A DNA stretch of 32,000 nucleotides from Candidatus Saccharimonadota bacterium (lineage in GTDB: Bacteria; Patescibacteriota; Microgenomatia; UBA1406; GWC2-37-13), in assembly GCA_016700135.1 (NCBI GenBank), contig CP065004.1, forward strand, positions 300,001 through 332,000, in the 5' to 3' direction. A program made the position numbers and the translations under genes. This document shows, one piece after another, positions 2,607-20,157 of this stretch (the stretch's first letter is position 1; each line of letters begins with the position of its first letter). The notes below the pieces were generated by a model, which saw nothing but the letters and a program-made list of their open reading frames with translations, searched no databases and had not been told where the DNA came from.

Positions 2607-4313
2607 TCAGCGTTCCATCTCAACCTCAATGACCCGTTTCAGGATCGCAAGGGAGGACGCATAGGTAGCCTCAACTCCTTCATAACCGAGGTTTCTGGTT
2701 CCGAGTGTGATCGCTTTCGTGAACGGCGTATCCGATGCATAGTGGATGATCCCGATATCTATCGGGGCGTTGAGCATAGTCACCGTTGTATTTTTGGGAT
2801 ATCGGTCGAAATGAGTCGTCTCGTATAAAGCGCTCAGATAAGGACCGTCCTCCATCTCGACTATCGTGTAATCTTCAATGAAGTACTGTTGAATCGCCTC
2901 TTCGGGATGGAGGAATGTGCCTTTCGTAGATACGACTTTCTGATTGGTCAGGACACTTCCCGCACGAAATTCCGTGAAGTAGTCTTTTGTAAAGGCATTA
3001 TTAAAAATGAACGTATTGTCACTGTACGTATCATATACTTTTGTCGGTAGTCCGATATCACCCAAGTTTGCATGCAAAAATGAGGCTTTCCCCAAAATAT
3101 ATACACCGCGAAGATCATTGACGTTGTGGAGAATCGTTGAGAGTACCATATAGGCTCCTGAGCCGAGAGGATAATCTATGTTGAGGACCAGTGCTTCGGA
3201 ATCGTCAAATTTCCCTTGAGCAATCCCCAGTTTTTTAGCCAAGCCTGTTTTCCCGACATCTTTCAGTGAAAATACCTGCGCATTGATATCGAGATAATGT
3301 TTCGCATCAATAAAATCAATACCCAATTCGCGTTCGTAAGCTTCCCGTTTTTCTCGAATTTCCGGATGCTCCCTTTCATACTTTTTCAGTATGTACCAGA
3401 GAAAATTTTCTTTCGAACCGGGATGCTCTCCTTTCTCGATCTGTTTCCAGTATGAGAGAAACCGCTCGGATTTATGTTCCTCAAGATATCCGATCAGCTC
3501 CTTTTCAATGCCTATGACCCAACCGGTGAGATTGTTTACGATGCTGTGAGTGTTTGATGAGACAAAATACAAAGGCTTATTCCTCAGTTCCTTATACCGC
3601 GTATGTTCAATAATATTTTCGAACCATCTCTGTGCTGCTTTTTTATAGTCGACATAATTACCCCGAAGCAGTCTTACGTTAAAATGAACTTCCTTTTCTT
3701 TGATGTTTTGGAGCTTTTCAAACATTTCTTTATCCCAGATTCGAGCCAGACGTTCCCAGTTTTCATCATCAATTTCAAGAACATCCTGAATCTCTTTTTT
3801 GTTCTTTGCGGAAATTTCTTTAGCATTTTTCAACCTGCTATGGAGTTTGTTCCACTCGATTTCATATGCCGTGAGAAGACCTACCATGTCATCCAGATCA
3901 GTCACGGAGTTGATGAACACGGCAAGCTGGGACTCTCCGTCATAGTACATCTTGCGGCGGCGTGCCGGTGCATGAACTTCCTGCCAGAACTCTATTTTGT
4001 ATCCTTCCCGCACAAAGATATCACCTATCTGTGCCATAACGATTTTGGAAATCTCGGATATATGAGGCGGCAAACGAAGATACGCATACATAAAAGCCTC
4101 AACATCGATTTTCTCCTGATCGGCGAATTTATGGATAGAAGGCCTCATGTTCTGATACAGCCGTACTACCTGTTCTATATTCATTTCTCCTTCTGCACGT
4201 AAGAATGATCTGTACGCATTGATATATATCGTGGTTGGGGAATGTTCTTGATCCATAACTGTACACATTTTAGCAGAAGTACGGATATTCTGAATGCAAG
4301 AAATGATTGACAT
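2607..4313 (-). CDS. hypothetical protein: long helical N-terminal region plus a C-terminal nucleoside phosphorylase / AMP-nucleosidase-like domain
   Basis: 568-aa ORF, first gene of the zwf-gnd operon. The C-terminal LVLNIDYPLGSGAYMVLSTILHNVNDLRGVYILGKASFLHANLGDIGLPT ... IVEMEDGPYLSA parallels the PNP_UDP_1 pattern (xGxGxxxAA...GxxGG...GD, then xxEME). An alternative start at MDQEHS (ATG 4256) lies 10 nt downstream of TGCTAAAAT (4275..4267). Confidence 0.75.
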   Translation of the reverse strand: MSIISCIQNIRTSAKMCTVMDQEHSPTTIYINAYRSFLRAEGEMNIEQVVRLYQNMRPSIHKFADQEKIDVEAFMYAYLRLPPHISEISKIVMAQIGDIFVREGYKIEFWQEVHAPARRRKMYYDGESQLAVFINSVTDLDDMVGLLTAYEIEWNKLHSRLKNAKEISAKNKKEIQDVLEIDDENWERLARIWDKEMFEKLQNIKEKEVHFNVRLLRGNYVDYKKAAQRWFENIIEHTRYKELRNKPLYFVSSNTHSIVNNLTGWVIGIEKELIGYLEEHKSERFLSYWKQIEKGEHPGSKENFLWYILKKYEREHPEIREKREAYERELGIDFIDAKHYLDINAQVFSLKDVGKTGLAKKLGIAQGKFDDSEALVLNIDYPLGSGAYMVLSTILHNVNDLRGVYILGKASFLHANLGDIGLPTKVYDTYSDNTFIFNNAFTKDYFTEFRAGSVLTNQKVVSTKGTFLHPEEAIQQYFIEDYTIVEMEDGPYLSALYETTHFDRYPKNTTVTMLNAPIDIGIIHYASDTPFTKAITLGTRNLGYEGVEATYASSLAILKRVIEVEMER

Positions 4314-4368
4314 ACGACTCCGGCTTTTTTATACTCTAAAACGGTATAAAATTTACATCATACTGCCA

Positions 4369-4473
4369 ATGTTTTTTCAATAAAGGGAGATATACAAAGA
4401 GGAGTGCTCCCGGCCTCACAAGATCAATCGGAACTGTCTTATCACAACGACCCTTTGAAGTGGTCGTTTTTTT
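4369..4473 (+). promoter_or_regulatory. candidate cis-regulatory leader RNA (pseudoknot plus intrinsic terminator), copy A, class unassigned
   Basis: GGGAG 4385-4389 pairs with CTCCC 4407-4411. GAGG 4399-4402 pairs with CCTC 4414-4417. The terminator is CGACC 4448-4452, a 9-nt loop, GGTCG 4462-4466 and T7 at 4467-4473, ending 18 nt before the FTR1 ATG. The same blocks recur at 14462..14564. Confidence 0.6.
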
Positions 4474-4491
4474 ATAAGTTACCCTGACAAT

Positions 4492-5310
4492 ATGTTACCT
4501 GCATTCCTTATCACTTTTCGCGAAGTCATTGAAGCGACGTTGATCGTTGCCACGATTCTCGGCATTTTATACAAACTCAACCATACAAAAAGTATTAAAA
4601 CCGTCTGGTATGCAACAGGTATTGCCGCTTTAACAAGCGCTTTACTGCTTCTCGGCGGCAGCATTCTCGGCGTAAAAATGCAGGAGCTTTATACAGGGAG
4701 AGTAGAGGAACTTATCGAAGGTATCTTCATGGTGACTTCAGCAATTTTTATCACATGGGCTGTCTTTTTCCTCCATTCATATTTCGGAAAATACAAAGTA
4801 CAACTATTACAGAAAGTGAAGAAAACTCTGGAAACGCAGGAACAGAAGGGAATATTTGTACTCGTTTTTACGGCCGTATTCCGTGAAGGATTTGAAATTG
4901 TACTATTTCTTTCGACAATCTACTTTTCTTCCGATCCGGCACATATTTTTACAGGGTTTGCGTCGGGTATTATTGCCGGACTTATTGTTTCATATCTGTT
5001 TTTCAATGCGACGGTGAAGATGCCGATTTATTATGCGTTTCGGGTGACAAGCGCTCTCCTGATCTTGTTTGCTGCAGGACTCTTATCACGCGGGATCCAT
5101 GAGTTTGCCGAAGCAGGACTGCTCCCCGAGATAGGAAATGTGATATTTCATATAGTTCCTGCAAAGGGAACATTTGTGGGAGACATGATAAAAGCAGTTT
5201 TCGGGATCACTCAGTCAATGGATTATGTGCAGGTCAGCCTCTATTTGATGTATACCGCCGCTATGACGTGGTTTGTATTTTTCAGGAAAAGCACTGCTGA
5301 GGAAACCTAA
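4492..5310 (+). CDS. FTR1/EfeU-family high-affinity iron permease
   Basis: 272-aa polytopic membrane protein with the two REXXE motifs of the FTR1 family (REVIE near the N-terminus, REGFE mid-protein). Confidence 0.85.
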   Translation: MLPAFLITFREVIEATLIVATILGILYKLNHTKSIKTVWYATGIAALTSALLLLGGSILGVKMQELYTGRVEELIEGIFMVTSAIFITWAVFFLHSYFGKYKVQLLQKVKKTLETQEQKGIFVLVFTAVFREGFEIVLFLSTIYFSSDPAHIFTGFASGIIAGLIVSYLFFNATVKMPIYYAFRVTSALLILFAAGLLSRGIHEFAEAGLLPEIGNVIFHIVPAKGTFVGDMIKAVFGITQSMDYVQVSLYLMYTAAMTWFVFFRKSTAEET

Positions 5311-6703: not shown

Positions 6704-6762
6704 GAATGTATAGGTAATGTGTCTTGTTACCAATTCATGACTTGAAAGGTGGTGAGGCCAAC

Positions 6763-6900
6763 ATGCCAGTAAAGAAAGCAAAAAAAGCTGTCAAGAAAAC
6801 CGCTAAGAAAAAGGTAGCAGCTAAAAAGAAAACAGTGAAGAAAACCGTCAAGAAAGCAGCTAAAAAGAAAACAACCAAGAAAAAAACAGCAAAAAAATAA
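6763..6900 (+). CDS. 45-aa lysine-rich basic protein (histone-H1-like KKAAKK repeats)
   Basis: ATG 6763 is preceded by AAAGGTGGTGAGG (GAGG 5 nt upstream). The translation is MPVKKAKKAVKKTAKKKVAAKKKTVKKTVKKAAKKKTTKKKTAKK, followed by a strong terminator. It is too short for the ORF track. Confidence 0.65.
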   Translation: MPVKKAKKAVKKTAKKKVAAKKKTVKKTVKKAAKKKTTKKKTAKK

Positions 6901-6910
6901 TCTCTTTTTG

Positions 6911-6958
6911 AAAAGATCACAGTCAATGACCGCGGTGGTATGCTGTGATCTTTTTTTT
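6911..6958. terminator. intrinsic terminator, potentially bidirectional
   Basis: AAAAGATCACAG (6911-6922) pairs with CTGTGATCTTTT (6943-6954). A T-run follows on the + strand and an A-run/T-run on the reverse strand. Confidence 0.75.
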
Positions 6959-7053
6959 CCTTCATTCACACCAAAGGTCATAGTGATAACCCTTAAAGGG
7001 AATGAAGGAATCTCCGAAGAAGATTCCTTCATGGTCAACATGAATTGCCGGAA

Positions 7054-7935: not shown

Positions 7936-8349
7936 ATGAAAAACGACAATATTGAACAATTAAAGGACAAAGGTCATCGTATCACACAGGCAAGAAGTGC
8001 TGTTATAGAACTTTTGGAGAATACGGATCGTCCGACTTCAGCAAAAGCTCTTCACACAATGCTTGAACGAATAGGAATCCATGTGAATGTGACGACTGTA
8101 TACCGTGAACTTGACTTCCTTCTTGCAGAAAATATTATCGAAAAAGTACCTTTGAAAGATACGGAACTGCATTATGAAATGAAAGGACGACCGCATCACC
8201 ATCATCTTCTTTGTACAGCGTGCGGAAATATTGAGGATATCTCGTTGGAATCAGAACATGTTCTTTTGGAGGAAGCACATACCGTTTCTTCCTACCAAAT
8301 AAACAGACACTCGCTTGCATTCTACGGCAAATGCCCGAAATGCCAGTAA
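7936..8349 (+). CDS. Fur-family metalloregulator (Fur/Zur/PerR not distinguishable)
   Basis: A winged-helix N-terminus (ITQARSAVIELL...TVYRELDFL), an HHHH stretch, and CTAC plus CPKC zinc-site cysteine pairs. Confidence 0.85.
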   Translation: MKNDNIEQLKDKGHRITQARSAVIELLENTDRPTSAKALHTMLERIGIHVNVTTVYRELDFLLAENIIEKVPLKDTELHYEMKGRPHHHHLLCTACGNIEDISLESEHVLLEEAHTVSSYQINRHSLAFYGKCPKCQ

Positions 8350-13023: not shown

Positions 13024-13219
13024 GCAATCCAACAACTACAAAAAAAGAAAGGAGAATGCCTGACATTCAACTACGTTGTACAGGTGAAGCAGAAACCTGG
13101 AAGAGATCTTCGGATCGAATCGAATCTAAAGGAGTAATCCTGAGGAACTGCCGGTGAGAGCTCAATGTTCAAACCGCAATCACTATCCAAGACGTAGTAC
13201 TTTCAATGGAGGCAATCTC

Positions 13220-13735
13220 ATGTTTAGCAGCATTCCTGATCTGTTCAACCGCCGCAATGGCGACAAGTCCAAGAGTGTCGATCCCAATGCTATCCAGGTG
13301 ACGATCGAGGAGACCTACAGCATCCCGGTCGCGGCAGACCGCGAGATCGTGCAGACCGCCGTCCGCGAAACCTTGGAGCAGGTTCTGCCTGCCCTCCTGG
13401 CATCGCAGCGCCGCTCGCCGTATGATCGCTCTCCCTTTGAGTCCCCGTTCCGCAGCCGCCGCTCACCGTTTAGCTCGCCCTTTGGCGACGAAAACGACGA
13501 AGACGGCACAGACGCACTCGCCGCAATCATGGCCATGGCCATGATGGCCCTGCAGTCCGAGGAGAACGGTGAGCGCGACTGCGCGTACGGCGAAGACGAC
13601 TGCATGATCGGTCACGCCATGCGGACTCTGAACCTCTACGTGGAGGACGAGGAGTACCGGCGCTGGGCCGAAGAGGATGAAGGCGACGAAGAAGACATGC
13701 TCGCTGAAGAGGCAGCCGAGCAGGCTGCCGACTAG
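13220..13735 (+). CDS. acidic SPF-repeat protein of unknown function, encoded on a GC-rich island
   Basis: GGAGG (13208-13212) lies 7 nt before ATG 13220. Codon third positions are strongly G/C in this frame. The 171-aa product contains RSPYDRSPFESPFRSRRSPFSSPF and an acidic tail, EEDEGDEEDMLAEEAAEQAAD. Confidence 0.7.
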   Translation: MFSSIPDLFNRRNGDKSKSVDPNAIQVTIEETYSIPVAADREIVQTAVRETLEQVLPALLASQRRSPYDRSPFESPFRSRRSPFSSPFGDENDEDGTDALAAIMAMAMMALQSEENGERDCAYGEDDCMIGHAMRTLNLYVEDEEYRRWAEEDEGDEEDMLAEEAAEQAAD

Positions 13736-13785
13736 ACTGTCTGAGCTTCCGCTTTGAACAAAGCCCTTTCTGACCGTAGTTTGTT

Positions 13786-13810
13786 GGAGGGGGCACTCCG
13801 TGCCCCCTCC
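13786..13810 (+). terminator. perfect GC-rich hairpin downstream of the island gene (no U tract)
   Basis: GGAGGGGGCAC, a tcc loop, then GTGCCCCCTCC. It has no T-run, so terminator function is uncertain. Confidence 0.35.
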
Positions 13811-13850
13811 GACGCTTTGCGCCTTCCCTCATTCTTTCCTTTTAACAGAT

Positions 13851-14393
13851 ATGTCACTTACAGAATTACGCCCTCATTTCCCCGGATATATCGATGTCGC
13901 ACCGACCTGTCAGGATACCGAATGGCGCTGGTTGGAATATTTTCATTATGCAAACGGAGAGCCGCTCCAGACAAAAATGATTCAGGTAGTTAGCGCTCAT
14001 GATCCTCATCAATTTTGGACAACTACGGCCGTCATGAAAGAAAAACAGGGAGATAAACTTCTGGGATCAAAGACACACTTGTGTCTGACGGGAGAAATTG
14101 CAGGATTTGTAGCCGCAAATACACTGTCTCATGCCGAGCGGTTACGGTCTTATTACAAGCTTGCTAACAATCACTTCATGTTTTTCGGAGGAGTTCTGAT
14201 GAGACCTTTGATGGTATCTCCTCTTCCCCGAATGGGCTTTGATGAGATAAAAAATACATACTATAATCCGGATAATTCTGATTGGTATCTTGTACACCTA
14301 TTTGATTTGATTTCTCAAAAAAATATTCCTGTTGACCGGGAACGGTTTATAGCAAACGTCACAGCATTCTCACACTCCATCGGAGTCATCTAA
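13851..14393 (+). CDS. hypothetical protein (180 aa)
   Basis: The ORF from MSLTELRPHF has native-like composition and no recognisable motif. The ORF-track start at 13800 lies inside the hairpin and is rejected. Confidence 0.55.
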   Translation: MSLTELRPHFPGYIDVAPTCQDTEWRWLEYFHYANGEPLQTKMIQVVSAHDPHQFWTTTAVMKEKQGDKLLGSKTHLCLTGEIAGFVAANTLSHAERLRSYYKLANNHFMFFGGVLMRPLMVSPLPRMGFDEIKNTYYNPDNSDWYLVHLFDLISQKNIPVDRERFIANVTAFSHSIGVI

Positions 14394-14461
14394 GATCTTC
14401 CCTTGCACACTTCTCTCTTCTTTTTTATAATAGAGTACTTGTCAATTCAGATTGTCAAAAT

Positions 14462-14564
14462 AATGTTTTTCGAATAAAGGGAGTCTTTCATCTGAGGTTC
14501 CGCTCCCGGCCTCGTCATAACAGCTATCAGTTTAACCGCGACCTGACTTTCCGGTCGTTTTTTT
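14462..14564 (+). promoter_or_regulatory. candidate cis-regulatory leader RNA (pseudoknot plus intrinsic terminator), copy B
   Basis: GGGAG 14479-14483 pairs with CTCCC 14503-14507. GAGG 14494-14497 pairs with CCTC 14510-14513. The terminator is CGACC 14539-14543, a 9-nt loop, GGTCG 14553-14557 and T7 at 14558-14564, ending 8 nt before ATG 14573. Confidence 0.6.
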
Positions 14565-14572
14565 GTGCCATC

Positions 14573-15640
14573 ATGGATTCTTCATCATTTGAAACAATGC
14601 GTGAAGAACAGCTTCAAGAACGTGAAAGCGCGGATGTCACAAATGCCGCCCATATCCTCGGCAAGACCATGGGTGTCTCTCTTGACGGGATTCCGAGCTT
14701 TATGAAGCCTCAGGAAATTCCCGGTTTGCCGAAACAACAGGAAGGGATACCTGCCGATCATGATTGTACTATATGTGCCGTCACGGCAGCCTGCGGATTT
14801 TTCAGTGAAGCACAAAAAAACGGAGGGAATAATCCGTTGATGAGACGATTACAGGCAGTTCAGGAACTGACAAAATCTAATCCGGATATTTTGAAAGGCC
14901 CCGACGCAGAGAGTCTTATCAGGGAGCGTATGGACGCATTAAAAATCCAACCGGAAACGGTTATAACTCCTTCTTCAGAAGTTACTCCGACGAAACAGGA
15001 GGCAGTAAAACCGGCTGCGTCCGTGATACCGGAACCCGTATCGATCGTGAAAGAGGCCTCCAAAGCACAAAATGAAATCCCCAACGTGAAACCTGTCGAA
15101 GCCGCCCCTCCTCCAATTGCAAAACCTGATCTGAAAACAACTGTCGCTCATTTTGAAGCAAAAGTCCAACCTACATTGTCAGTTGAAAAGCCAAATACAA
15201 TAGCATCTTTGCCACACGACCCTACCCCTGCGGAAACCGGAACCGTTCCTCCCACTGAAACTGCGCACCAATCAGCACCTCCCGCTGAACAATCCGTACC
15301 TTCTGCAGGAGATGCTCCTGTTGTAGGAGCATCTGAACATCAGAACAAACCAAATGAAAAATTGACAGAGAACACATTACTCAAAGAATCAGATGAACCA
15401 AAGAAAGAGACCCACCAACAAACTGGAGTGAAAGAGGTAGCAGTTTCTGAAACCTCAACTACAGCAGCAACTATCGACAAAACAGAACAACAATTTGAGG
15501 ATTTCCAACAATCTACATCGGAAGTACAGCAAACTAAGCATACGGCAAATCCTTCCGAGTATCCGCCCGAAACTCCCCACCAGGCGGGACAAACTGTAAA
15601 GGAAAAAGCAAAAGCCTCAAACGTATATGAAAGGCTCTAG
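14573..15640 (+). pseudogene. 5' fragment of an IS-disrupted gene for a ~900-aa acidic, Pro/Thr/Glu/Ser-rich protein
   Basis: The ORF runs into the IS left inverted repeat. There it gains two foreign codons (R, L) and stops at TAG 15638-15640. Confidence 0.8.
15626..15632. repeat. target-site duplication TATGAAA (left copy)
   Basis: Identical 7-mer immediately flanking each inverted repeat of the IS. Confidence 0.8.
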
Positions 15641-16347
15641 ACTAGCACATTAACAATTTGTAATAGTTCATTGTAAAGGATCGATGGGGATTTGCTCCAT
15701 CTCCATTCACACTCTTTCAAGTGTAATGGAAAGTTTTTCTTTACACCATTGAACTTAACGAGACGTCTTTTACAAAAGGACCAGAATGACTCTATGCCAT
15801 TGATATGGACCCCTTTTGTATTTGAGAACTCATTTTTCTTGTGATTGATTCTCAAATGTTTGTCATACCCGACATCAACAAGTCCGTTGTATCCGCTCCA
15901 CGAATCTGAATATACAGTACTGTTCAAGTCAATCTTTCCCTTCATAACAGCATGTAGCGTTCTTCTTTTACAGTTTGGAATGATACGAGTAAATACACGT
16001 CCTTGACGCTCATATATCCCAAATACTACCTGCTTAAATGACGTCCCACGACCTCTTTTACTTGACTTGCCTCTCATCCTTCGAGGTCCAAAGTATGATT
16101 CATCAATTTCTATCTCACCACCAACATATCGTTGCATCTGGTGCACTTGGTGATGATATATGAGTTGACGAATATTATTGTAATATTTGTTGACTGTATT
16201 GCGGTTGAGACCCAAAATACCAGAGGTCTGTGTAGCACTCAGATCGTGTGCAAAACACCATAGTATCTTTTTTCTCTTGTATTTTGATATCGGCCTATTG
16301 TTACAAACCATACCTCTAGTTTAGCACTACTCTGCTAGTCTAGAGCC
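15633..16347 (-). mobile_element. IS1595-family insertion sequence (small, IS1016-like size class), 715 bp
   Basis: Perfect 15-bp terminal inverted repeats: GGCTCTAGACTAGCA at 15633-15647 and its complement at 16333-16347. It has a single transposase ORF and 7-bp direct repeats. Confidence 0.9.
15637..16311 (-). CDS. IS1595-family (ISXO2-like DDE) transposase
   Basis: 224 aa. EIDESYFG, KRGRGT..K..VFGIYER.G.V, YSDSWSGYNGL, INH..NEF and HINGIESFWSF.KRRL are hallmark blocks of DDE_Tnp_IS1595. The stop codon lies inside the inverted repeat. Confidence 0.9.
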   Translation of the reverse strand: MVCNNRPISKYKRKKILWCFAHDLSATQTSGILGLNRNTVNKYYNNIRQLIYHHQVHQMQRYVGGEIEIDESYFGPRRMRGKSSKRGRGTSFKQVVFGIYERQGRVFTRIIPNCKRRTLHAVMKGKIDLNSTVYSDSWSGYNGLVDVGYDKHLRINHKKNEFSNTKGVHINGIESFWSFCKRRLVKFNGVKKNFPLHLKECEWRWSKSPSILYNELLQIVNVLV

Positions 16348-16354
16348 TATGAAA
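16348..16354. repeat. target-site duplication TATGAAA (right copy)
   Basis: See the left copy at 15626..15632. Confidence 0.8.
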
Positions 16355-17997
16355 TTACCAAGATCGATAAAACCGACATTGCTGAACTTCCGACATACAC
16401 AGCTAGGGAACATCAAAAACCGCCCGTGACGGAAACTTCTACTGAAGAAACACGAATGGAGATCCCAAGAGGTTTTGCTCAACCTGAGGAGTCACGGGTT
16501 TTTGGAGTAACTACCTCAACCAGGCTTGTTGCAGAACAAACGGATGTTCTTCCACAGATCTCCGAACCAGCCTCATACGTTCCGAAGGAATCTCTTCCCG
16601 ACGTCATGGAATCGGGATTTGTCATTCCCCAACCGTCGATTGAAATGCACATTGGGGATCATCCCGTCACGCCTGAGGAGTCTGCCATCAAACGACATAC
16701 CGGACAATCAGAAGACACTGCGGAGCAATTTTCATCACCTTCTGAAGTGCAACCGACTGATGTATCTGTCATAACGGACACGCCGAAAGAAAGGCTTCCA
16801 GAAAGCAACATCTCAACTCCCGTATCGGAAACTTCTCCGTTTGCAGCTGAAGAACAGTTCTCTTTCATGACAGTACCTGCCGAAGAGGCTGCTTCCACGG
16901 AAACAACACCGAATCAGACAGATACACCGAGCGGTTTTCAGGAATCTGTAATTACCGATTTTACCGAAAATGAGGAAAATTTATTGTCAGAACAAGCCCT
17001 TAACGCTGATACTCATATCCCGGATACTGAAACGTCAACAGTATCCCTAACACAAACGGAATCGGATGAACGAACAATTACTGCTGATTCAGAACTTATA
17101 CGAACAGACATTGCGGACTTACCGCCCAATACTGAAGTCATACTTGAAACGGGGCCCCAGGCTGTTTCTCTCACCGAGCAGACAATAACCCTTTTCTCAT
17201 ACAAAGATGCCCATAGAGAAGATAATAAAACTGAAGATTTAACCCCGGGAGTTTATCCCGAACATGGACTCTCACCAGTTGTTGATCTGCCTTACGTCCC
17301 TCTTGAATCCATTAACCTTACCCAACTGATTGAGTATGATGCTGCTGGTCTTGTCCAAAATACTTCTGATACCTCAGAAAAAGATCCTCAAGCTCACTTT
17401 AAGGTATATGAAGATTCAGAAGACGAGATCATATCTGAGCAGCCCGATAATCAGGAAATAATTCCGGGAATACCATTTCCTGAACCGTTTCCGCTTATTT
17501 TGAATACTGAGCAGGAAGTAGTTGATCAGATTTTCAGAGGGATTGAAGATCAAAACTACCAGGAAGAGCCAATCGGCGTTTTTGTACTCCCTATGGAAGA
17601 GTCTGTGTCCGATGAAAGCAGCTTCGTTGAAGATAATGTCCTCCCCGAAGTGATCGTATTTGTCTGGAATGAAGCACTTTTTGAAAATCTGACTATGCAT
17701 ATTGCTGAAATTAACGAAGTTATTGAAGATTTTGCCGTTGAAGAACAACTGGACGGGATGTTCTATATTCTTTTTGACAGTAACCCTGAAGTGGCCGACG
17801 AAGAATTGAAGAATGATACATTCGGCAAATATGACGACACCGTCATTCTCCTGTGGTATATCATCAAAATGATGGCGCTATTCGGACAGGCAATGCTTTA
17901 CATTGACCCGAGATCACTCATACCTGAATTTAAATATCCTTCACATAATATCGGATCTCTCCCGATTTCGGATCAAGAAGATCATATAAGTACGTAA
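16348..17997 (+). pseudogene. 3' fragment of the IS-disrupted acidic protein gene
   Basis: The frame is open from the right target duplication (TAT GAA ATT ACC ...) through the ORF-track GTG at 16426 to the stop at 17997. It is in phase with the 5' fragment once the IS and one duplication copy are removed. Confidence 0.8.
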
Positions 17998-18566: not shown

Positions 18567-19661
18567 ATGCGAAATACATTTCTCACAATTCTGGTATTGC
18601 TTGCGGGGAGCATTTCATTTGTCGTATTCAAAAGTAATGCAGGTATTCAGAAACTCACCGTCAAATCAGAGAGCAACCAGGAAATATCACCGTCACAGGA
18701 ACCTACCGGGATACCGGATCAGAAAGTATTGAAAAGCAATTACCATATCTATCAATCATTCAACAACTGCGGTCCCGCATCACTTTCCATGGCTCTTTCA
18801 CATTATTCTATCAATGCCTCTCAGGAAGAGCTCGGGAAAGCTCTTCGACCGTATCAAAACCCCGCAGGAGACAATGATGATAAATCAGTCACATTGGAAG
18901 AATTAGGGAATAAAGTAGTTGACTACAACCTTATTCCCTTTCACCGGCCGGACGGTGATATCGAGCTTTTGACCCGTCTGATTGCACTGGATCTGCCCGT
19001 CATAACGAGAACATGGCTTACGAAAGATGAAGATATCGGCCATTATCGGGTAGTCACGGGATATGACAAAACATCGGGAGAAATTATTCAGGATGACTCT
19101 TATCAGGGACCAAACAGAAGATATTCCTATGAAGAGTTTGATGAATTGTGGAGCAAATTCGGTTATGAATATCTAGTCCTTGTCCCACCGGAAAAGAAAA
19201 ACGAAGTTGAGAAAGCCCTCGGTGATGAAGTAGATAAAACCGTAGCATGGGAACACGCAAAACAAAAAGCACAGAAGATACTTGCAGAAAACCCAGATGA
19301 TACAACTGCCCGCTTTAATCTGTCCGTTGCGGAATATTATCTGGGGAATTATAAACAATCAGTCGAAGAATACGAAAAAGTACGTGACAGACTACCTTTT
19401 CGGACACTCTGGTATCAATCGGAGCCTATTCGCGCCTACTTTGAACTTCAGGCTTATGATAAGGTATTCTCAATTACTGACAATATACTGAAAAACCAGA
19501 ACCGGGCATATTCAGAACTGTATATCATCCGGGGAGATAGTTACATGAAACAAAATCAACCCAAATTAGCAAAGCAGGAATATGAAAAAGCGGCCTACTA
19601 CAATCAGAATTTACAGATTGCCGAAGACCGCCTCCAATCTCTTTCTGTTACTCAACAATAA
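18567..19661 (+). CDS. peptidase C39-like domain protein with C-terminal TPR repeats, membrane-anchored
   Basis: An N-terminal TM helix (MRNTFLTILVLLAGSISFVVF). NNCGPASLSMALSHY is the C39-like catalytic Cys region and GHYRVVTGYD the His region. The C-terminal repeats are TPR-like. Confidence 0.75.
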   Translation: MRNTFLTILVLLAGSISFVVFKSNAGIQKLTVKSESNQEISPSQEPTGIPDQKVLKSNYHIYQSFNNCGPASLSMALSHYSINASQEELGKALRPYQNPAGDNDDKSVTLEELGNKVVDYNLIPFHRPDGDIELLTRLIALDLPVITRTWLTKDEDIGHYRVVTGYDKTSGEIIQDDSYQGPNRRYSYEEFDELWSKFGYEYLVLVPPEKKNEVEKALGDEVDKTVAWEHAKQKAQKILAENPDDTTARFNLSVAEYYLGNYKQSVEEYEKVRDRLPFRTLWYQSEPIRAYFELQAYDKVFSITDNILKNQNRAYSELYIIRGDSYMKQNQPKLAKQEYEKAAYYNQNLQIAEDRLQSLSVTQQ

Positions 19662-20157
19662 GCGTACCGACCTGTCCCTGCGCACGATGTTCACCCACTG
19701 AACAGTAGTATTCGAAAGTGCCTTTCTCCGTGACTGTAAACTCTACCGTTCCCGTGTCGCCGTTCTGAACGACAGGCATTTTGACTCCGAGCTCATCAAT
19801 GACAAAATCATGCATCATACTGACACTGTTCATTACAATGCGTACTTTATCCCCTTGCTTTACCCGGATTTCATTCGGTTTGTAGTAAAAACTTCCCGCT
19901 TCCACTTCAACAATCTGTACCGCTTCTTCTGAAGTACCGGCAGCCGATTGCTCTCCCGATCCGGAAGTAGTTGTATCCGGGGCCATAGAGTCATCCGTCT
20001 GACTTTCTGTTTCCGTTGTCGTATCTGTGTTGACTGCCTGTGAATTCTGATTGTTCTGTGTCATAAAAATCCCGGCCGCAACGACTGCCACGATAATAAC
20101 GGCTCCGATAATAAGCATATTGCTATTCCCTTTCGGTGATTGTGCTGCCTGTTCCAT
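19648..20157 (-). CDS. membrane-anchored cupredoxin-domain protein
   Basis: A TM helix, a Thr/Ser/Asp-rich linker, then a cupredoxin fold with MHDFVIDE (His) and YYCSVGEHRAQGQVG (Cys, His). Gln sits where related proteins carry the axial Met. Confidence 0.75.
   Translation of the reverse strand: MEQAAQSPKGNSNMLIIGAVIIVAVVAAGIFMTQNNQNSQAVNTDTTTETESQTDDSMAPDTTTSGSGEQSAAGTSEEAVQIVEVEAGSFYYKPNEIRVKQGDKVRIVMNSVSMMHDFVIDELGVKMPVVQNGDTGTVEFTVTEKGTFEYYCSVGEHRAQGQVGTLIVE

Follow-up and report, generated by a model that had tools for sequence, protein, structure and literature searches.

The question raised by this locus is why one short leader should stand in front of two genes that do not resemble each other. 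The window analysed here is a stretch of 32,000 nucleotides of contig CP065004.1 (positions 300,001 to 332,000), and the leader occurs in it twice, as copy A (4368–4475) ahead of a gene for an FTR1-family iron permease and as copy B (14462–14564) ahead of a gene for an acidic protein. The element is almost certainly a cis-regulatory leader of some kind that contains its own mini-open reading frame (mini-ORF). The reading preferred here, held with a little better than even confidence, is that of a leader-ORF attenuator gated by programmed −1 ribosomal frameshifting. It is built on comparison between lineages, in which the mini-ORF, a slippery heptamer, a spacer and a pseudoknot are conserved, the −1 frame is kept open and ends at particular places, and no antiterminator is found. 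From this comparison we infer that the mini-ORF is translated, and that a slip occurs on it which controls both termination and initiation. All features lie on the plus strand of the window unless stated otherwise.

One leader before two unrelated genes

The two copies can be aligned with each other, and the pairing elements that a sequence-only reading had proposed for copy B are all present in the letters. The region consists of AATGTTTTTCGAATAAAGGGAG, TGAGGTT, GCTCCCGGCCTCG, GCGACC and GGTCGTTTTTTT in that order, followed by 8 nt (GTGCCATC) and the ATG at 14573. Within it GGGAG (14479–14483) faces CTCCC (14503–14507), GAGG (14494–14497) faces CCTC (14510–14513), the terminator stem is made from CGACC (14539–14543) and GGTCG (14553–14557), and a T7 run occupies 14558–14564. 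The terminator stems of both copies are indeed CGACC/GGTCG, neither downstream gene has a Shine–Dalgarno (SD) sequence (both starts also lack a promoter), and the two downstream proteins are unrelated (BLASTP E = 7.6); the placing of the same cis leader before two unrelated genes is genuine and conserved. A pattern describing the shared core (GTTTTTYNNNTRAAGGGAGN{10,30}CTCCCG) matches the window exactly twice and has no match in 100 dinucleotide shuffles of it. No third copy was found in the window with this pattern or by covariance-model search, and a covariance-model search of 490 kb of collected loci together with the window returned one copy per locus, two in the window and no extras.

The FTR1 protein of the window is 100% identical to a protein named Candidatus Roizmanbacteria, and its 120 best relatives (at least 66% identity) bear, where a name is given, mostly names of the Microgenomates group. 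In about 24 Microgenomates lineages the motif stands ahead of an FTR1 iron permease, and it is retained in the orthologous FTR1 leaders of relatives at 84–97% protein identity. Among 80 metagenomic FTR1 loci fetched regardless of the motif, 16 carry it and four carry degenerate versions, the remaining loci having a promoter directly ahead of a leaderless start. The copy-B leader is likewise kept before orthologues or homologues of the copy-B gene in three other contigs (L089, L113 and L095; collected loci are designated by L and a number). In L089 it precedes a 954-aa orthologue, and the copy-B leader of L113 lies on the same contig of one relative as the copy-A leader of L003. The sequence-only reading had spoken of a two-member regulon and had named, as a check, the presence of the motif upstream of orthologues in related genomes; it is present there for both genes, and the regulon stands, with the association conserved and both leader types on one relative's contig. 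Of the partners of the leader FTR1 is the ancestral one and, by a wide margin, the most frequent.

A pattern scan over 185,579 species genomes gave 25 hits, 15 of which are true in that they have the mini-ORF, the second helix described below (P2) and the expected context. Thirteen of these precede FTR1 and two precede homologues of the copy-B gene. The labels under which the true hits are filed are unverified: six are Gottesmanbacteria, Roizmanbacteria or Patescibacteria, and eight are 'uncultured Gammaproteobacteria', one of the latter being where L001, a relative of the window at 97% identity, is found. L095 (contig JBGSBR010000005.1), which carries the motif and a homologue of the copy-B protein, is binned, under a label that is also unverified, as Weeksellaceae (Bacteroidota); either it is mis-binned or the element is present outside the Candidate Phyla Radiation (CPR). 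The other 10 hits are chance matches in unrelated genomes, mostly within coding regions. The match at 3692–3727 of L106, a Paceibacteria contig, is due to chance, being a simple GGGAGATATA/TATATCTCCC hairpin flanked by repeated gaatccccttgcggctaccaagg and unrelated to the motif.

Mini-ORF, heptamer and pseudoknot

The conserved 5′ block of the leader is a mini-ORF of the form M-X(0–4)-F-F-X-stop, found in 28 of 28 instances (27 aligned sequences and L113). It opens with an in-frame start codon (27 ATG and one GTG) and 0–4 variable codons, continues with TTT TTY and one further variable codon, and closes with TAA or TGA; the Phe codons always lie a whole number of codons from the start. Copy A has ATG TTT TTT CAA TAA (4369–4383; peptide MFFQ) and copy B has ATG TTT TTC GAA TAA (14463–14477; MFFE), and other peptides include MSKLFFA, MRRFFA and MIPFFT. 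A −10-like hexamer ends 5–9 nt before the AUG of the mini-ORF in 16 of 25 lineages, a distance which implies that the mini-ORF is leaderless. In the other nine lineages (the window copies and seven others) a strong −10 box ends 31–36 nt upstream of the AUG. The promoter-like site of copy A is TTGACA-17-TATACT (4307–4335), which is conserved in orthologous loci, and that of copy B is TGCACA-16-TATAAT (14404–14431), which predicts a 5′ untranslated region (UTR) of about 25 nt ahead of the mini-ORF.

The Phe codons lie within a heptamer, G_UUU_UUY, placed in the frame of the mini-ORF (G_TTT_TTT at 4371–4377 in copy A and G_TTT_TTC at 14465–14471 in copy B). Throughout the 27 aligned instances the G and the T5 never vary and a pyrimidine (C or T) closes the heptamer, and the same is true of L113 in its mini-ORF frame. 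The G before the U-run is kept whichever codon holds it (ATG, CTG, TCG, CGG, CCG or CAG), so that the constraint acts on the RNA sequence G_UUU_UUY and not on Phe-Phe alone; the variable codon X and the N-terminal residues are unconserved. Between the heptamer and the first helix the spacer is exactly 7 nt in every instance (NNN, then UAA or UGA, then A or C), and the stop of the mini-ORF ends 1 nt upstream of that helix. The spacer of copy B is GAA TAA A (14472–14478), which holds the zero-frame stop (14475–14477), and the alignment is gap-free over columns 1–20. The usual distance from heptamer to structure is 5–9 nt (PMC5009743). After a −1 slip the A-site half, U_UUY, would re-pair perfectly and the P-site half, G_UU, at two of three positions. 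In equine arteritis virus G_UU is accepted as the X_XX (P-site) half, and a U_UUY A-site slips in T7 gene 10 (PMC5009743).

Two helices follow the heptamer. P1 (GGGAGC/GCUCCC) starts right after the spacer, and P2 joins (U)GAGGAU, inside the P1 loop, to GUCCUC(A), directly 3′ of the P1 3′ arm. The copy A pseudoknot (4385–4417) has P1 formed by GGGAG (4385–4389) and CTCCC (4407–4411), and P2 by GAGG (4399–4402) and CCTC (4414–4417). In copy B the P1 arms are GGGAGT (14479–14484) and GCTCCC (14502–14507) and the P2 arms are TGAGGTT (14493–14499) and GGCCTCG (14508–14514), the last being contiguous with the P1 3′ arm. Across P1 and P2 90.6% of the cells of the 27-sequence alignment pair, a percentage inflated by the P2 5′ arm register having been picked for maximal pairing, and both partners have changed in seven of the 13 pairs. 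Pairing and covariation as high as these did not arise in any of 500 shuffles, and slid controls give 44–50% pairing. Most of the covariation is carried by P2, with double changes in five of its seven pairs (variants TAGGA/TCCTA, ATTGGC/GTCAAT and ATGGC/GCCAT), and P1 is near-invariant with one compensatory change (GGGTG/CACCC). These compensatory changes show that both of the helices proposed by the sequence-only reading are real.

The loops are short, with loop 1 of 7–12 nt, loop 2 of 1–3 nt and loop 3 of 0–1 nt. L071 is excepted; its P1 differs, its P2 is unrelated and its loop 3 has 7 nt, and the layout is that of a textbook H-type knot. Taken alone, P1 has a stability of −6.7 to −10.4 kcal/mol and P2 of −4 to −8.5 kcal/mol, and it can be argued, by reasoning only, that the binding of the GCUCCC-GUCCUCA strand by two purine segments is sterically feasible. 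Folding of whole leaders as single sequences is no better than that of shuffles (z = +0.8 to −0.4), so that the support for the structure comes from comparison between sequences and not from thermodynamics. Outside the helices only UAAA, loop 2 and the junction G are conserved. Loop 1 is variable in length and sequence, which leaves little conserved unpaired sequence for a ligand pocket.

Further features around the cassette were noted. A palindromic, operator-like GTAATGTAnATTAC lies over the −10 box in L043, L053, L078 and L068, about 10–25 nt before the AUG of the mini-ORF, and also in the leader-less FTR1 loci L055 and L056, directly before the leaderless FTR1 ATG; it is a candidate Fur-family operator. 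The 5′ UTR of copy B (14439–14462) holds a direct repeat, TTGTCAA-N7-TTGTCAA, between the promoter and the mini-ORF, with equivalents in L089, L113 and L004. ACTTGTCAAT is found also in the copy-A leader of L004, and the repeat may be a protein-binding site. A small ORF starting from a GTG inside the copy A knot was rejected as it is not conserved in copy B, and a pairing of the U-run with the A-rich linker was set aside since it is present in some lineages only and missing from both window copies.

The −1 frame, the terminator and a proposed mechanism

Stops were counted from the stop of the mini-ORF to 14 nt before the foot of the terminator, or to the gene start if there is no terminator, over 24 non-redundant lineages, in a region that includes the variable loop 1 and the linker. 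The −1 frame has no stop triplet (0 of 24 lineages with at least one), the zero frame has 18 (13 of 24 lineages) and the +1 frame has 28 (16 of 24 lineages). Use of the +1 frame or readthrough of the zero-frame stop was rejected, both frames being rich in stops. The naive binomial P of 8e-9 for the avoidance of −1 stops is overstated by the phylogenetic relatedness of the instances, and the count per lineage is safer; chance would not readily give 0 of 24 beside 13 and 16 of 24. The TGA within P2 (TGAGGAT) falls in the zero or +1 frame and never in the −1 frame, so that the length of loop 1 is constrained modulo 3. Upstream in the −1 frame, 25 of 29 instances lack any ATG, GTG or TTG, and a frame with no start of its own has the mini-ORF as its only point of entry. 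The −1 product is unconserved beyond the x-L/I/V-K-G imposed by the RNA motif. The −1 stretch of copy A (4377–4487) has 36 sense codons followed by TGA (4485–4487), and that of copy B (14471–14572) has 34 sense codons, with neither a stop nor a start of its own, and runs in frame into the ATG at 14573.

Slippage of RNA polymerase on the T5–T7 run, by which an added U would let standard translation enter the −1 frame, would also account for a frame that is open and start-less, and the run is T7 in four lineages. Most instances, however, have T5 only (GTTTTTC), and efficient polymerase slippage usually needs runs of about 8–9 or more. It also leaves the invariant 7-nt spacer and the pseudoknot without a function, and this explanation is regarded as highly improbable.

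The end points of the −1 frame fall into two classes. In class I the stop lies 2–4 nt before the foot of the terminator hairpin (UAA, UGA or UAG followed by (A)CGACC; L003, L014, L017, L053, L086, L104, L107 and L116), inside the hairpin (L012 and L109) or 11–13 nt before it (L004, L016 and L084). In class II the frame crosses the terminator, or a terminator-free leader, to the gene start. It overlaps the start as AUGA in L033/L099, L040, L043, L068, L102 and L095 (the gene of L095 is non-FTR1 and begins Met-Thr) and ends as TAA-ATG in L113; in the window the TGA of copy A ends 4 nt ahead of the FTR1 ATG at 4492, and copy B is fused in frame into its ATG. Starts without an SD sequence and without a promoter (both window copies, L113, L089, L043, L095 and L018) are all of class II, the exceptions being L003 and L004, which are of class I and have no SD sequence. 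An in-frame −1 fusion as the general rule is ruled out by an extra T in L089 and by the TAA-ATG of L113. As read from these sequences, the general rule is that the −1 frame reaches either the foot of the terminator or the start codon.

Degenerate relatives of the leader bear on the same point. In L080, where neither the zero-frame stop nor the 5′ half of the knot survives, the leader ORF continues directly to a TAA-ACGACC at the foot of the terminator. The leader ORF of L048 ends 11 nt before the foot, and L058 has two small ORFs overlapping as TAATG, the second of which ends 4 nt before the FTR1 ATG. Translation in these loci would still reach the terminator or the start, which supports reaching as the output and the cassette as its gate. 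As a separate observation, the T-run is read as UCG UUU UUU in five of the seven lineages with a terminator-crossing −1 frame (for example at 4464–4473 and 14555–14564); this is a second G_UUU_UUU heptamer in the translated frame, with an excess over chance that is marginal (P about 0.05).

A terminator hairpin with a T-run was modelled in 23 of 29 instances and located by hand in L109 also. In copy A (4447–4473) the hairpin, ACGACCC..GTGGTCGT, occupies 4447–4467 and its last base (4467) is the first T of the T7 run at 4467–4473. In copy B (14538–14564) the hairpin, GCGACC..GGTCGT, occupies 14538–14558, and its final base (14558) is again the first T of the run. The sequence-only reading had seen in the identical stems of the two copies a sign of alternative pairing, and this part of it is not supported. 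The CGACC/GGUCG stem is a family-wide feature (ACG[AG][CT]C...G[AG]TCGT), and no antiterminator was found, the terminator hairpin being in the minimum-free-energy fold of 18 of 18 leaders. This was so whether the leaders were free or masked, with the mini-ORF and 12 nt blocked so as to mimic a ribosome at the zero-frame stop. A CGGCC:GGUCG pairing was rejected, being possible only in Roizmanbacteria-type copies and lost where the sequence is CCCGUCC. Since the terminator folds in all of these leaders, it would be constitutive unless physically covered; in a model of this arrangement a −1-frame ribosome at the foot of the hairpin would cover it.

These results bear on two further explanations. 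A ligand-binding riboswitch, for example a metal-sensing one, would use the pseudoknot as an aptamer that controls the terminator via alternative pairing. A covarying, conserved structure upstream of a metal transporter is what such a riboswitch would show, a terminator follows in most lineages, and the platforms vary (terminator, SD hairpin or none) as they do in riboswitch families. The folds, however, contain no antiterminator, the linker between knot and terminator is unconserved, and the variable loop 1 leaves few conserved unpaired positions for a pocket. Copy A, copy B and L043 matched nothing in Rfam at the gathering threshold, and relaxing the limit to E ≤ 10 returned noise alone. Nor would a riboswitch account for the mini-ORF and its heptamer, for a spacer of fixed length or for the openness of the −1 frame, and this explanation, the form in which the alternative pairing had been conceived, is quite unlikely. 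A ligand that stabilized the knot and thus tuned the frameshift could be compatible with the frameshift model.

The second is a ribosome-dependent attenuator that works without a frameshift, in which a pause or termination at F-F-X-stop covers the P1 5′ arm and toggles between P1 and P2 hairpins, with some effect of this toggling on downstream termination or initiation; stalling that depends on the nascent peptide or on tRNA-Phe could be the trigger. The conserved mini-ORF with its stop 1 nt before P1 suits this explanation, and P1 and P2, each stable alone and separated by a loop 3 of 0–1 nt, could be mutually exclusive. It does not explain why the −1 frame should be free of stops when the other two frames are not, why that frame ends as AUGA or at the terminator foot, or why the G ahead of U5 is held constant as a nucleotide. 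In folding, moreover, neither the P1 nor the P2 state touches the terminator, and an arrest peptide is at odds with the lack of conservation in codon X and the N-terminal residues. An attenuator of this type is considered unlikely.

The element could also be taken for an independent small RNA, maybe Fur-regulated and merely syntenic with FTR1, whose C/U-rich strand GCUCCCGUCCUCA would be an anti-SD-like seed. The unit does have its own promoter and terminator, operator-like palindromes lie over its −10 box, and a separate TATAAT box is found before the leaderless FTR1 of L012, L016, L048, L040 and L110. Yet every base of the C/U-rich strand pairs in the conserved structure, and the T-run is mostly followed by 8–30 nt, free of a promoter, before the gene begins. 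The copying of the element before a second gene, with orientation and distance unchanged, likewise speaks against a small RNA, which would also leave the open −1 frame unexplained; the probability given to it is very small.

The frameshift-gated attenuator would work as follows. The promoter would drive a transcript that starts at or shortly before the tiny mini-ORF. With the Phe codons of G_UUU_UUY in the P and A sites of the ribosome, the pseudoknot, 7 nt on, would stand at the mRNA entry channel. Those ribosomes that keep to the zero frame would end two codons later, the intrinsic terminator would form and the gene would be off. A fraction that slips to −1 would bypass the stop, melt the knot, follow the polymerase and translate 15–45 more codons. 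These ribosomes would stop either at the foot of the hairpin, covering the 5′ arm of the terminator, or beyond it. In the latter case they would stop on or next to the gene start (AUGA, TAA-ATG or the copy B fusion) and reinitiate or read on. The outcome would be transcriptional readthrough, delivery of ribosomes to a start codon that often has no SD sequence, or both.

Several points weigh against this mechanism. G_UUU_UUY is a suboptimal slippery site for bacteria, since the slipped P-site GUU mismatches the first base of tRNA-Phe. The unusual loop layout might mean that P1 and P2 are alternatives rather than a true knot, and the caution attached above to the pairing percentage and to the binomial P applies here. 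A ribosome terminating 11–13 nt before the hairpin, as in L004, L016 and L084, would barely reach it. Finally, the shift may be constitutive and simply couple expression to translation.

Downstream genes and known systems

The gene behind copy A (4492–5310) encodes an FTR1-family iron permease with the REXXE motifs REVIE and REGFE. It is adjoined by a ferric-reductase-like gene, and a gene for a FUR-family regulator (7936–8349), given for context only, lies 2.6 kb downstream. These three genes, together with the operator-like palindromes over the −10 box in Gottesmanbacteria-type loci, suggest iron as the input, and from this context iron status is the obvious candidate for a modulator of the shifting. 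In bacteria A37 of tRNA-Phe is modified to ms2i6A, whose methylthiolation needs the [4Fe-4S] enzyme MiaB. Iron restriction leads to hypomodified tRNA, with a reported relief of phe and trp attenuation in E. coli. The cassette might itself be an iron sensor that reads the modification of tRNA-Phe, the hypomodified tRNA slipping more under iron starvation and so turning FTR1 on. Loss of yW at position 37 of eukaryotic tRNA-Phe raises −1 slippage on UUU/UUC (PMC5699536), and the modification state of tRNA tunes −1 frameshifting in E. coli (PMC3296357). Neither miaA nor miaB was found within the window, and this extension of the model is speculative and rather unlikely. If true, it would describe an iron sensor made from a frameshift site, free of both riboswitch and protein. 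Elsewhere in this part of the window a 104-aa ORF (6727–7041, minus strand) consists of lysine-rich repeats of the AAAGAAAAC type (KKxAKK); it has no Pfam match, and its product may be a histone-like or nucleoid protein.

The gene behind copy B had been described as encoding an acidic, disordered protein of about 900 aa. In the window as it stands this is not so, the ORF from 14573 having 355 codons. The length is recovered when an insertion sequence (IS) that splits the gene is removed in silico, which gives an ORF of 900 aa with an isoelectric point of 4.3. The N-terminal part (14573–15632) is acidic, probably disordered and carries a conserved DHDCTIC motif, and the C-terminal part occupies 16355–17997. 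Between them lies a 715-bp insertion of the IS1595 family (15633–16347, minus strand) with its transposase ORF (15637–16311, minus strand), perfect 14-nt inverted repeats (GGCTCTAGACTAGC) at its ends and a 7-bp target duplication, TATGAAA (15626–15632 and 16348–16354). The insertion looks recent. Intact orthologues have 954 aa in L089 and 935 aa in L113. Homologue searches with the copy-B protein returned only these two proteins and one 148-aa fragment, and no Pfam domain was found in it. The distant homologue in L095, recognized by reading the sequence alone, shares the DHDCTIC N-terminal domain.

Upstream of copy B the window has an island of about 60% G+C (13154–13810) in a genome of 43% G+C. 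The island encodes an acidic protein with no Pfam match (13154–13735), and this gene is followed by a very strong hairpin (13786–13810, GGAGGGGGCAC..GTGCCCCCTCC) that is conserved in L113 (region 1614–2781). Compared with L113 the window has about 550 extra nt (13846–14393) between this hairpin and the copy-B promoter, and an ORF in the extra segment (13800–14393) has no Pfam match. A few genes downstream of the copy-B gene lies a gene with a cupredoxin domain (19648–20157, minus strand), which is conserved at 8255–8782 of L113. Cupredoxin and multicopper-oxidase partners accompany iron uptake of the FTR1/EfeU type elsewhere, and this neighbour hints at a link to metal handling in the surroundings of copy B as well.

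Programmed frameshifting is known mainly as a means of making two proteins from one message. The −1 programmed ribosomal frameshifting cassettes of dnaX, IS3/IS911, T7 gene 10 and the ORF1a/1b junctions of coronaviruses and arteriviruses have an X_XXY_YYZ heptamer in the zero frame, a spacer of 5–9 nt, a GC-rich two-helix pseudoknot on the 3′ side and a start-less −1 ORF. Every sequence-level feature of such cassettes that was examined is found in the leader, namely the heptamer, the spacer, a stable 3′ structure and an open, start-less −1 frame. The G_UU P-site half is shared with equine arteritis virus and the U_UUY A-site half with T7 gene 10 (PMC5009743). The leader differs from these cassettes in that its −1 product is unconserved, so that there is no second functional protein, and in that its zero-frame ORF has only 4–8 codons and lies at or near the 5′ end of the mRNA. 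Its loop lengths are unusual, and its output appears to be regulatory, via occlusion of the terminator or coupling.

Among leader ORFs the closest logic is that of ermCL, where a ketolide-induced frameshift carries ribosomes past the leader stop and opens the downstream structure (PMC5009743). In both systems ribosomes that have changed frame would bypass the stop of a short ORF and remodel the RNA, and the main gene would come on; the sequence layout of the leader fits such a scheme. The ermCL shift, however, is drug-induced and largely sequence-independent, with no dedicated heptamer and pseudoknot, and its target is a sequestered start site, whereas the target of the present leader would be an intrinsic terminator. 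The leader cassette is hard-wired, conserved and linked to an iron permease, with no context of antibiotic resistance, and the likeness is best taken as an analogy of logic and not as family membership. Drug-induced ermC is the only accepted case in bacteria of a leader-ORF frameshift that switches a downstream gene on. A natural case had earlier been seen in pheL, the favoured candidate, which proved incidental (PMC5009743).

With the attenuators of trpL, pheL and hisL the leader shares a short ORF, an intrinsic terminator just upstream of the gene and a dependence on the position of the ribosome. It differs in having no choice between antiterminator and terminator, in that ribosomes must change frame before they can get to the terminator, and in the codons themselves, since the Phe codons precede FTR1 or an acidic, ORFan-like protein and not genes of Phe metabolism. 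In pyrBI the leader ORF extends across the terminator, and it is the translating ribosome itself that blocks the hairpin; the proposed −1-frame ribosome may be likened to this type of occlusion. The H-type pseudoknot riboswitches (preQ1-II/III, SAM-II/V and fluoride) also have a compact knot in the 5′ leader followed by a terminator or an SD platform. In the present leader, by contrast, nearly all conserved nucleotides are in helices, a mini-ORF stands at a fixed distance, and there is neither a match in Rfam nor a mutually exclusive expression platform.

No prior description of the element was found in the literature, although absence from the searchable literature is no proof of novelty. To our knowledge, CPR bacteria (Patescibacteria) often do without SD-led initiation and have almost no characterized gene regulation. 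If the proposed mechanism is true, it would be a natural, regulatory use of −1 frameshifting tied to transcription termination and translational coupling, and among the first cis-regulatory mechanisms described for this group. The element is small (about 100 nt) and fully specified, and is directly testable in E. coli or in cell-free systems. On the sequence comparisons it ranks as a candidate, both compact and conserved, for a regulatory −1 frameshift in a CPR leader ORF, and among known systems it resembles, by analogy, a combination of a −1 frameshifting cassette, an occlusion attenuator of the pyrBI type and the ermC leader.

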